28,629 nucleotides of DNA from Prevotellaceae bacterium. GTDB lineage: Bacteria; Bacteroidota; Bacteroidia; Bacteroidales; UBA932. This document shows, one piece after another, positions 27,548 to 28,629 of the stretch. How positions within the stretch are numbered: the first letter of the stretch is position 1; each line of letters begins with the position of its first letter. The notes beneath the pieces were generated by a model that ran no database searches, had not been told where the DNA came from, and worked only from the letters and a program-made list of their open reading frames with translations. The position numbers and the translations under genes were made by a program. The stretch is from contig JAIRMD010000076.1 of NCBI GenBank assembly GCA_031258915.1, positions 1-28,629 of the forward strand, in the 5' to 3' direction.

Positions 27548-27858
27548 TTTTTTCCCTCCTCCCCGTTGAGTATCGGCTCCCCGTTGATGTGCAAGCCATC
27601 GCGCCCGCGCACCTCCACCTTGCGTATTCCCACGCGGGGCGCCACGCCACCCACCGCCTTGCCTCCGGCCACAATGCGCGATTGCTGGCTGTAGAGGTAG
27701 GGCGATTCGGGCAGCCACAGCTGGGGGTTTTTCAGGCTCAGCGCCCGCCGCACCTGCCGCTGCCCGCCCGCCTTTAGCGAAAGCGTAGCGGCGGTAAGCG
27801 GCAGGACGGCGGCAACCGCTGCTTTGGCCGTGAGGAAGGGTAAGAGAATGCTTTTCAT
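27544..27858 (-). pseudogene. Collapsed GH2 glycosidase remnant (signal-like start plus Ig-like domain only, no catalytic barrel)
   Basis: The 104-aa ORF contains LKNPQLWLPESPYLY and VGIRKVEVRGRDGLHINGEPI, matching the GH2 pattern nPxLWsPexPxLY...fGiRxie...gfxlNGep that directly precedes the TIM barrel. It then stops, overlapping the gtrA ATG. Confidence 0.75.
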
Positions 27859-27879
27859 GCGATTTTTTTTTATTACGAA

Positions 27880-27966
27880 TTATGAAACCTCGCTGCAGCT
27901 AAACGCATATTCGCCCGAGCCAGCCAGCAGCCTGCCGCTCCATCGCACCTTAGCGTCGCCGGTTGC
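27880..27966 (-). pseudogene. C-terminal stub of a glycosidase (GH78 alpha-L-rhamnosidase-like tail)
   Basis: Reads ATGDAKVRWSGRLLAGSGEYAFSCSEVS* in host-like GC-rich DNA. The terminal GSGxYxF resembles GH78 C-termini. No start codon, because the frame runs into AT-rich DNA and a stop near 27990. Confidence 0.45.
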
Positions 27967-28157
27967 CTTATGATGATAATTATAGTGATTTTATGCAATG
28001 GATAAGCCAGTATAAAGGCAAGGATATACCCATTTACGAGGTTGCTTACGAAAAAGCATACGGAAAAAATTTATTGTTAGGCTCATACTGGGGAGGATAT
28101 ATAAAGTTCTCCAGTGAGAAAACGAAGAAAATATTTGAAAATTACATTGCTAAATGA
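27963..28157 (+). other. AT-rich orphan reading frame, probably a foreign gene fragment
   Basis: LPYDDNYSDFMQWISQYKGKDIPIYEVAYEKAYGKNLLLGSYWGGYIKFSSEKTKKIFENYIAK*. Protein-like composition, sharp composition change near 27966, no recognisable family. Confidence 0.35.
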
Positions 28158-28284
28158 AGCTATTCTCAGGAGAAAACCCACGTTTTTCCACTACAGCAGT
28201 AACGTGCATAACCCGCAAATCCATTGCTTCCTGCTCATCCTTGCAAAGCTCAAGGTGCATCATCGTTGTCAATTCTTCCTTCAT
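28150..28284 (-). CDS. Small hypothetical protein (44 aa)
   Basis: MKEELTTMMHLELCKDEQEAMDLRVMHVTAVVEKRGFSPENSFI*. The ATG is preceded by an A-rich leader and a perfect -7 box about 20 nt upstream. Confidence 0.65.
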   Translation of the reverse strand: MKEELTTMMHLELCKDEQEAMDLRVMHVTAVVEKRGFSPENSFI

Positions 28285-28304
28285 TTTTGTTTGATTTATT
28301 GGCG

Positions 28305-28312
28305 CAAAGCTA
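28305..28312 (-). promoter_or_regulatory. -7 box (TAGCTTTG) for the 44-aa ORF
   Basis: Perfect TAnnTTTG followed by C on the minus strand. Confidence 0.7.
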
Positions 28313-28432
28313 CAAAATTTTATCATCAAAAGCAATGGGAATTTTGGCTTGCTCATTTTTGAGCGCCTGCTTTTTTTTATAGGCGTGTGCAGAGAATAAT
28401 TTCCCACATTTTTTTTTTCAAGAAAATGTTCG

Positions 28433-28440
28433 TACATTTG
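28433..28440 (+). promoter_or_regulatory. -7 box (TACATTTG) for the putative ncRNA
   Basis: Perfect TAnnTTTG followed by C. No credible CDS follows before the terminator. Confidence 0.75.
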
Positions 28441-28445
28441 CTTCC

Positions 28446-28628
28446 AGATGCTGAACGGCGCTTCGCCGACCGTTTAGGCTATTCAAAGGACGGCGCTTGC
28501 GTTGTGGCCACTGCCACCAGAGCCGACACCCGGGTAGCCGAAAGCATTACCGCTGTACTACGGTACGGTGACCGCAGGTAACGCTGCTTGATAGAGAGTT
28601 AGGAGGTTTTACTTCCTAACTCTTTTTT
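28446..28628 (+). ncRNA. Putative structured non-coding RNA (~180 nt, rod-like; 6S/Bacteroidales-1-like candidate or attenuator leader)
   Basis: Bounded by a promoter box and a terminator. Nested helices found by eye: 28463-28473/28560-28571, GGCTATTC/GGGTAGCC (28477-28484/28532-28539), CGGCGCT/AGAGCCG (28491-28497/28519-28525, one mismatch) and GTGGC-CACT-GCCAC (28504-28517). The 5' end is estimated from the -7 box. Confidence 0.65.
28593..28628 (+). terminator. Rho-independent terminator
   Basis: AGAGTTAGGA (28595-28604) pairs perfectly with TCCTAACTCT (28614-28623), followed by a T-run. Confidence 0.88.
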
Positions 28629-28629
28629 A

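Follow-up and report, generated by a model that had tools for sequence, protein, structure and literature searches.

A possible orphan RNA between a promoter and an intrinsic terminator in the decayed remains of a prophage in a Prevotellaceae bacterium

GibS of Bacteroides thetaiotaomicron is an intergenic, trans-acting small RNA (sRNA) that has its own promoter and its own terminator. In phage lambda, the '6S' RNA is a 194-nt transcript that runs from pR' to tR' and is antiterminated by the Q protein. The Bacteroidales-1 motif (RF01693; PMC2864571) has been reported as a 6S RNA homologue in B. thetaiotaomicron and Segatella copri, and SrcF provides an example of an sRNA in S. copri (bioRxiv 10.1101/2024.04.05.588293). 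We compared with these systems a unit of about 180 nt in a Prevotellaceae genome, for which an earlier note, written from the DNA letters, had considered a 6S/Bacteroidales-1-like RNA, a new sRNA or a two-state attenuator. The window, by which we mean the whole stretch of 28,629 nt that was analysed, is one complete contig (C197) of a MAG that is 70% complete and consists of 260 contigs. The unit lies within the last 200 bases of the window, and the contig ends at 28629, one base past the T-run of the terminator.

Related records are named as termite-gut Prevotellaceae or Bacteroidales MAGs. A run search listed a single public run with this stretch, a DNA run of a termite gut metagenome, in all likelihood from the source sample itself, and listed no RNA run carrying the sequence of the unit. 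In the Logan data of one DNA run, 28337-28629 forms a single unitig with a depth of 45.9, as compared with 38.1 for the host flank. This unitig continues just 38 nt beyond the end of the window before the graph branches, indicating that more DNA follows. An independent Logan contig covers 27500-28147, so the junctions between host and phage remnants are not the artefact of one assembler. Between 28260 and 28373, the depth in the one metagenome that holds the stretch is 3-4 times that of the flanks, with variant contigs diverging on both sides, and a contig of a congener (G004:C27) also breaks in this region. The segment is a repeat or a strain-variable piece of phage DNA that breaks assemblies. 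The last 15-55 bases of the window do not overlap with any further contig of the MAG, no second copy of the unit was found there, and a look-up by exact product found no longer contigs on record.

The unit begins with a Bacteroidota-type promoter, whose -7 box (TACATTTG) is indeed present on the plus strand exactly where the earlier note had placed it. By itself, a bare TAnnTTTG box is weak evidence, since the window holds 30 such sites versus 17.4 expected. The longer 36-nt promoter segment was matched at 88-91% identity in several genomes in a BLAST search of 400 genomes of the same family, and the sequences matched, identical at 29-32 of 36 positions, are promoters in these relatives, two of rplS (L031, L032) and one of an ATPase gene (L026). 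The extended word GAAAA-N2-3-TT-NN-TAnnTTTG occurs at nine sites in the MAG versus 0.22 expected under a first-order Markov model, although the word was derived partly from the present site and the fair count is the eight other sites. Six of these eight lie 15-144 nt upstream of open reading frames of at least 82 aa. Judged from its sequence, the promoter is real, and the extended word makes a usable promoter signature for the lineage. We infer that transcription most likely starts at about 28446, at the first base of the predicted helix P1. Near-identical 36-nt words also precede rplS in other genera of the family, and sites of the extended word in the MAG are found, for example, on contigs C20, C154, C234 and C242.

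At its other end, the unit closes with an intrinsic terminator (Table 1). The stem and T-run that the earlier note had described are both present, with a stem of 15 bp rather than the 10 bp then given. The hairpin has a folding energy of -19.7 kcal/mol and a z of -5.8, and none of 300 shuffles was as stable. On inspection of the opposite strand, no T-run follows the stem, and the element is therefore not a terminator in that orientation. We conclude that the terminator is real. The idea of a two-state attenuator, in contrast, found no backing in the folding energies. The best duplex between any part of the body and the 5' arm of the terminator reaches -7.6 kcal/mol versus -19.3 kcal/mol for the hairpin, forbidding the hairpin costs about 20 kcal/mol, and duplex energies calculated over the whole body gave no antiterminator helix in the RNA that would be exclusive with the terminator. 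Since no segment of the body is able to compete with the terminator, termination should be constitutive, and since the alternative folds of the body are also negligible in the ensemble, the sequence offers no two-state switch.

Table 1 Features at the right-hand end of the window
Feature	Coordinates	Strand	Basis or description
GH2 glycosidase fragment	27574-27870	-	Pfam Glyco_hydro_2; congener loci L016-L022
Last ~21 codons of 962-aa gene	27889-27951	-	Comparison with congener loci
Last ~55 codons of head-morphogenesis (MuF)-fused polymorphic-toxin-type protein	27963-28157	+	Full-length relative, L025 1-1317
Divergent 44-codon gene	28150-28284	-	Shortened copy of a 68-74-aa phage-associated small protein (alignment)
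Open frame	28387-28581	+	64 codons from GTG 28387, 51 from ATG 28426
Bacteroidota-type promoter	28408-28443	+	T-run, GAAAA block, -7 box TACATTTG at 28433-28440
Transcript body (predicted)	28446-28592	+	Predicted three-way junction, then hairpin P4; ~147 nt
P1 (predicted)	28447-52/28543-48	+	6 bp
P2 (predicted)	28453-60/28467-75	+	8 bp with bulge
P3, long arm (predicted)	28477-28539	+	63 nt
P4 hairpin, UACG loop (predicted)	28551-28570	+	8 bp
Intrinsic terminator	28593-28628	+	15-bp stem 28593-28607/28611-28625, UUU loop, six-T run 28623-28628

The body between these two elements is predicted to fold into a three-way junction that is followed by the P4 hairpin and then by a weak hairpin of 4 bp. 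Several of the pairings pointed out in the earlier note are present, namely the helices GGCUAUUC/GGGUAGCC, CGGC/GCCG and GUGGC-CACU-GCCAC, each with a pairing probability of at least 0.98, and the GTAC-TACG-GTAC hairpin reported at 28555-28566, with a probability of 0.997. The long rod into which the note had assembled them is a minor alternative, at -70.6 kcal/mol versus -76.1 kcal/mol for the three-way junction (5.5 kcal/mol worse) and with an ensemble probability of 0.0003. It spans just 28463-28571, and its loop is one-sided, with 3 nt opposite about 20 nt. The second alternative fold that had been proposed is similarly disfavoured, at -71.2 versus -76.1 kcal/mol and a probability of 0.001. 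The whole unit has a z of about -5. The 150-nt body taken without the terminator has a z of -1.74, and 13 of 200 shuffles fold as well as it does. Across the tests made, the z of the body ranged from -1.5 to -1.9 (p 0.05-0.09) and that of its sub-domains from -1.5 to -2.5. The value for the whole unit is owed to the terminator alone, and the earlier description of a stand-alone "structured" non-coding RNA is not supported for the body, which folds only marginally better than its shuffles.

We searched for the unit among known RNA families. Rfam 15 at gathering thresholds gave no match over the window, and the hits obtained at E <= 10 over 28200-28629 (430 nt) were at chance level, the sole one on the unit being a partial alignment to the terminator hairpin. 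The cmscan comparison with Rfam, 6S and Bacteroidales-1 included, thus yielded no family match to the unit, and Rfam likewise gave nothing over 15 related phage and genome loci. The 6S models RF00013 and RF01693 found nothing at E <= 1 in the whole MAG and no candidate in 18 genomes of the family (up to 30 relatives), a 99%-complete congener among them; as a control, RF01693 does match B. thetaiotaomicron, which belongs to another family of the same order. The silence of both models across the family implies that its 6S RNA is not found with current models. In 14 congeners, whose copies of the neighbouring GtrA gene share 70-85% DNA identity with the one here, the unit was not found, which indicates that it is not the 6S RNA of the family.

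No relative of the body was found by other means. In BLAST searches of 60 relatives and 400 family genomes the body was unmatched, and just the promoter word and the AT-rich phage part gave matches. A covariance model built from the single sequence (R1) reached a best E of 0.5-0.8, which is chance level, over 150 family genomes (including 8 congeners) and 32 loci. At the 14 loci with a gene for the small protein encoded next to the unit, nhmmer and blastn gave no match to the body. Phage and plasmid collections gave none either, and scanning metagenome contigs (2) and viral contigs for exact words did not recover the body. A 34-nt match in one genome (G013) and a 22-nt match in three viral contigs were set aside as chance matches inside coding regions. 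The homologues with compensatory base changes that the earlier note had looked to were found in none of these searches, and covariation is not countable where there is no homologue, which removes the only computational route to proving an RNA structure. The failure to find a relative is not proof that there is no RNA. A search of the MAG for antisense targets gave just chance-level matches of 19-21 nt.

The unit sits in a decayed prophage remnant beside truncated host genes. To its left, on the minus strand, an intact GtrA gene is followed by the remnant of a GH2 gene and then by the tail of a gene for a 962-aa protein, and all three genes are intact in the congeners (loci L016-L022). Of the GH2 gene, about 300 nt are left, and by comparison with these loci the window has lost stretches of about 1.6 kb and about 1 kb. 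From about 27955 onwards the GC content is 33-41%, versus 50-60% before, and the DNA is phage-derived. It opens with the end of a MuF-fused gene, whose 55-aa remnant itself has no match besides self and whose full-length relative in L025 matches PHROG families of head morphogenesis and of Bxa ADP-ribosyltransferase. The divergent gene that follows is shortened from a protein of no known family with the pattern MKEELTT..H..FCKDEQEAMDLRVM, which stands tail-to-tail with MuF-type genes in seven genome loci and seven IMG/VR viral contigs. Nothing like the RNA body was found in the loci that carry this protein. The two remnants together form a decayed toxin-type module (27963-28284) with relatives at L025 1-1592, L037 1490-1810 and L039-L051. 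In one genome (G128), a gene resembling those for ADP-ribosylglycohydrolases lies in the same small operon, which suggests a toxin/immunity set.

An open frame runs through the promoter and the body (Table 1). Its last 46 codons coincide with the GC-rich body, and 13 nt separate its stop from the terminator. Over the body it outscores the other five frames, with G at 0.48 of first codon positions. Its log-odds coding score is 7.4, where pieces of real genes reach 31 ± 14 in frame and -46 ± 23 off-frame. Against a composition-matched null, 7-9% of dinucleotide shuffles reach this score, and 7% of real gene pieces score as low. The earlier statement that the stretch holds no credible coding sequence was therefore too strong, as the frame is open and its score borderline (p about 0.07-0.09). 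The searches run gave no credible protein relative and no sign of the protein-level conservation that had been raised as an alternative. The product of the frame has no Pfam or PHROG family and a low language-model (Atlas) recognition value (1799). It gave no match by tblastn in its own genome and all fetched loci, has no paralogue in the MAG, and in a protein search of 400 family genomes obtained four matches at E 0.03-0.1, which is chance level. A phmmer match among 1.84 billion representatives, to a 1427-aa BspA-like repeat protein, was rejected: seven near-identical repeats add up to its E of 2e-9, whereas one repeat taken singly reaches about 29 bits with 14 of 32 identities, which is chance level at that library size. 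The ATG at 28426 sits in the promoter spacer, between the -33 and -7 elements, and the same AAGAAAATGTTC word in the promoter of the ATPase gene (L026) opens just a 9-codon frame and is not a start there. Past the inferred transcription start, the sole ATG frame has 9 codons, and the long frame has just a GTG 25 codons before its stop. With the ATG in the promoter, no ATG in the long frame past the start and no protein relative, the transcript is probably untranslated. A real small protein in this frame is unlikely, and a decayed gene tail is possible.

Taken together, these observations lead us to favour, tentatively and with somewhat less than even confidence, an orphan, mobile-element-borne, stand-alone transcript that is probably non-coding and that is either functional or a relic. 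The canonical promoter would drive an RNA from near 28446, and this untranslated RNA of about 180 nt would end at the intrinsic terminator. If functional, it would act in trans by base-pairing through those parts of the junction and linkers that are left unpaired; that it is a transcribed relic without function is just as possible. Like an sRNA gene, the unit has its own promoter, as far as the DNA sequence tells, and its own intrinsic terminator. The new sRNA considered in the earlier note is thus still the best reading, in that its promoter and terminator hold up, although it is unproven and has no homologue. That the unit encodes a functional phage-borne regulatory RNA of a kind undescribed in Bacteroidota, be it a terminated late-operon leader that needs processive antitermination or the RNA partner of an enzyme whose gene lies past the contig end, seems doubtful.

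The orphan transcript has to be weighed against readings in which the same stretch is something else. It might be coding sequence, either the decayed 3' end of a gene that a deletion has joined to the promoter or, less likely, a real protein of 51-64 aa, and we regard this as unlikely. All neighbouring genes at the locus are deletion remnants, and the open frame crosses the GC-rich body and stops just ahead of the terminator as at the 3' end of a gene; it is also the best of six, with its G-rich first positions and a score that few shuffles reach. However, equally few real gene pieces score so low, the lone database match is to a chance-level repeat protein, the product has neither a relative in the 400 family genomes nor a Pfam or PHROG family and is poorly recognised by Atlas, and the ATG lies within a promoter shared with other genes. 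The proposal that the unit is the 6S RNA of the lineage, of the Bacteroidales-1 type and sequestering RNA polymerase, is close to refuted. The length of about 180 nt and the possession of a promoter and a terminator would suit such an RNA, and the family has no assigned 6S RNA, as neither 6S model matches in the 18 family genomes. Yet neither RF00013 nor RF01693 matches the unit, which was found neither by BLAST in 14 congeners nor by the covariance model in eight, and its location is in phage-derived DNA. The extended, end-paired rod with a two-sided central bubble that marks 6S RNAs is not predicted here; at minimum free energy the RNA forms a three-way junction with hairpins, and the rod has a probability of just 0.0003. 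Housekeeping conservation was likewise not seen, either in the 14 congeners or across the 400 family genomes. The 6S/Bacteroidales-1-like reading offered in the earlier note is not supported, on the grounds of the covariance models, the predicted fold and the failure to find the unit in the congeners searched.

Two further readings place the meaning of the unit beyond the contig end. By analogy with lambda, it might be a cis-acting leader whose promoter serves genes past that end, such as the head genes located after the MuF gene in phages related to this one, and read-through would then need a protein or RNA antiterminator that modifies the polymerase. A strong promoter followed about 180 nt later by a strong constitutive terminator in prophage-derived DNA is consistent with such a leader, the DNA does continue for the 38 nt of the Logan unitig, and in related viral contigs (L049 and L050) structural genes continue MuF-ward past the reverse small gene, at the position of the unit. 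We nevertheless consider a leader fairly improbable, given that the RNA contains no antiterminator structure, that related phage loci have no comparable leader at the same position and leave the body unmatched, that the other promoters of this type in the MAG stand just 15-144 nt upstream when they precede long open reading frames, and that intact late genes downstream are doubtful for a phage here reduced to fragments. Much less likely is that the RNA, as a retron msr-msd, tracrRNA, IS110 bridge RNA or omega RNA would, partners an enzyme of a mobile element or defence system whose gene lies past the contig end. The mobile DNA setting, the contig break and the coverage variation nearby would fit such a partner, and the predicted junction, which is closed by P1, has one short arm and one long arm and carries a G directly behind P1, is reminiscent of the topology of retron non-coding RNAs. 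The strong terminator would, however, part the RNA from the enzyme gene, no Rfam model matches, the HEARO and omega models included, and searches of the 70%-complete MAG gave no reverse transcriptase (no RVT_1 match anywhere) and no transposase that could credibly be assigned to IS110. Nor did a crude k-mer scan reveal any CRISPR-like array. These negatives weigh little, as the MAG lacks part of its genome and mobile DNA frequently escapes binning. Two other candidates were rejected: for a type III antitoxin RNA, which would have direct repeats of about 35-45 nt in tandem ahead of a terminator, no tandem repeat was found at a score of at least 30, with one 9-nt word occurring twice, 35 nt apart; and a DGR variable repeat was dropped, as the peptide appears to be without the usual C-terminal motif and no reverse transcriptase was found.

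Should the orphan transcript that we favour be made and have a function, the sparsely known RNA repertoire of termite-gut Bacteroidales and their phages would gain one orphan sRNA or leader. For now it is a candidate seen in one copy in one genome, within DNA that is decaying, and it raises no wider question. What is useful here is negative: the unit is not the 6S RNA of its lineage, and the structure that had looked strong is due entirely to the terminator.

Among the described systems, the Bacteroidales-1 RNA resembles the unit in being a stand-alone unit of about 180 nt from the order Bacteroidales. It differs in being a rod that bears a bubble, whereas a three-way junction plus hairpins is predicted for the present unit, which has no covariance-model match, is not conserved within its genus and lies in a prophage remnant. 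The pR'-tR' unit of lambda likewise has a strong, constitutive promoter with an intrinsic terminator placed about 190 nt further on, in phage DNA at the head of the late genes or among them. Here, by contrast, the phage is a fragment, there is no sequence relation to lambda, and no late or antiterminator gene is visible up to the contig end. The intergenic, trans-acting sRNAs of Bacteroidales, such as GibS and SrcF, differ from the unit in that it is a singleton without sequence or model similarity to any family; like them, it would combine a TAnnTTTG promoter with an untranslated RNA in or near their range of 100-200 nt that ends in a hairpin and a U-run.
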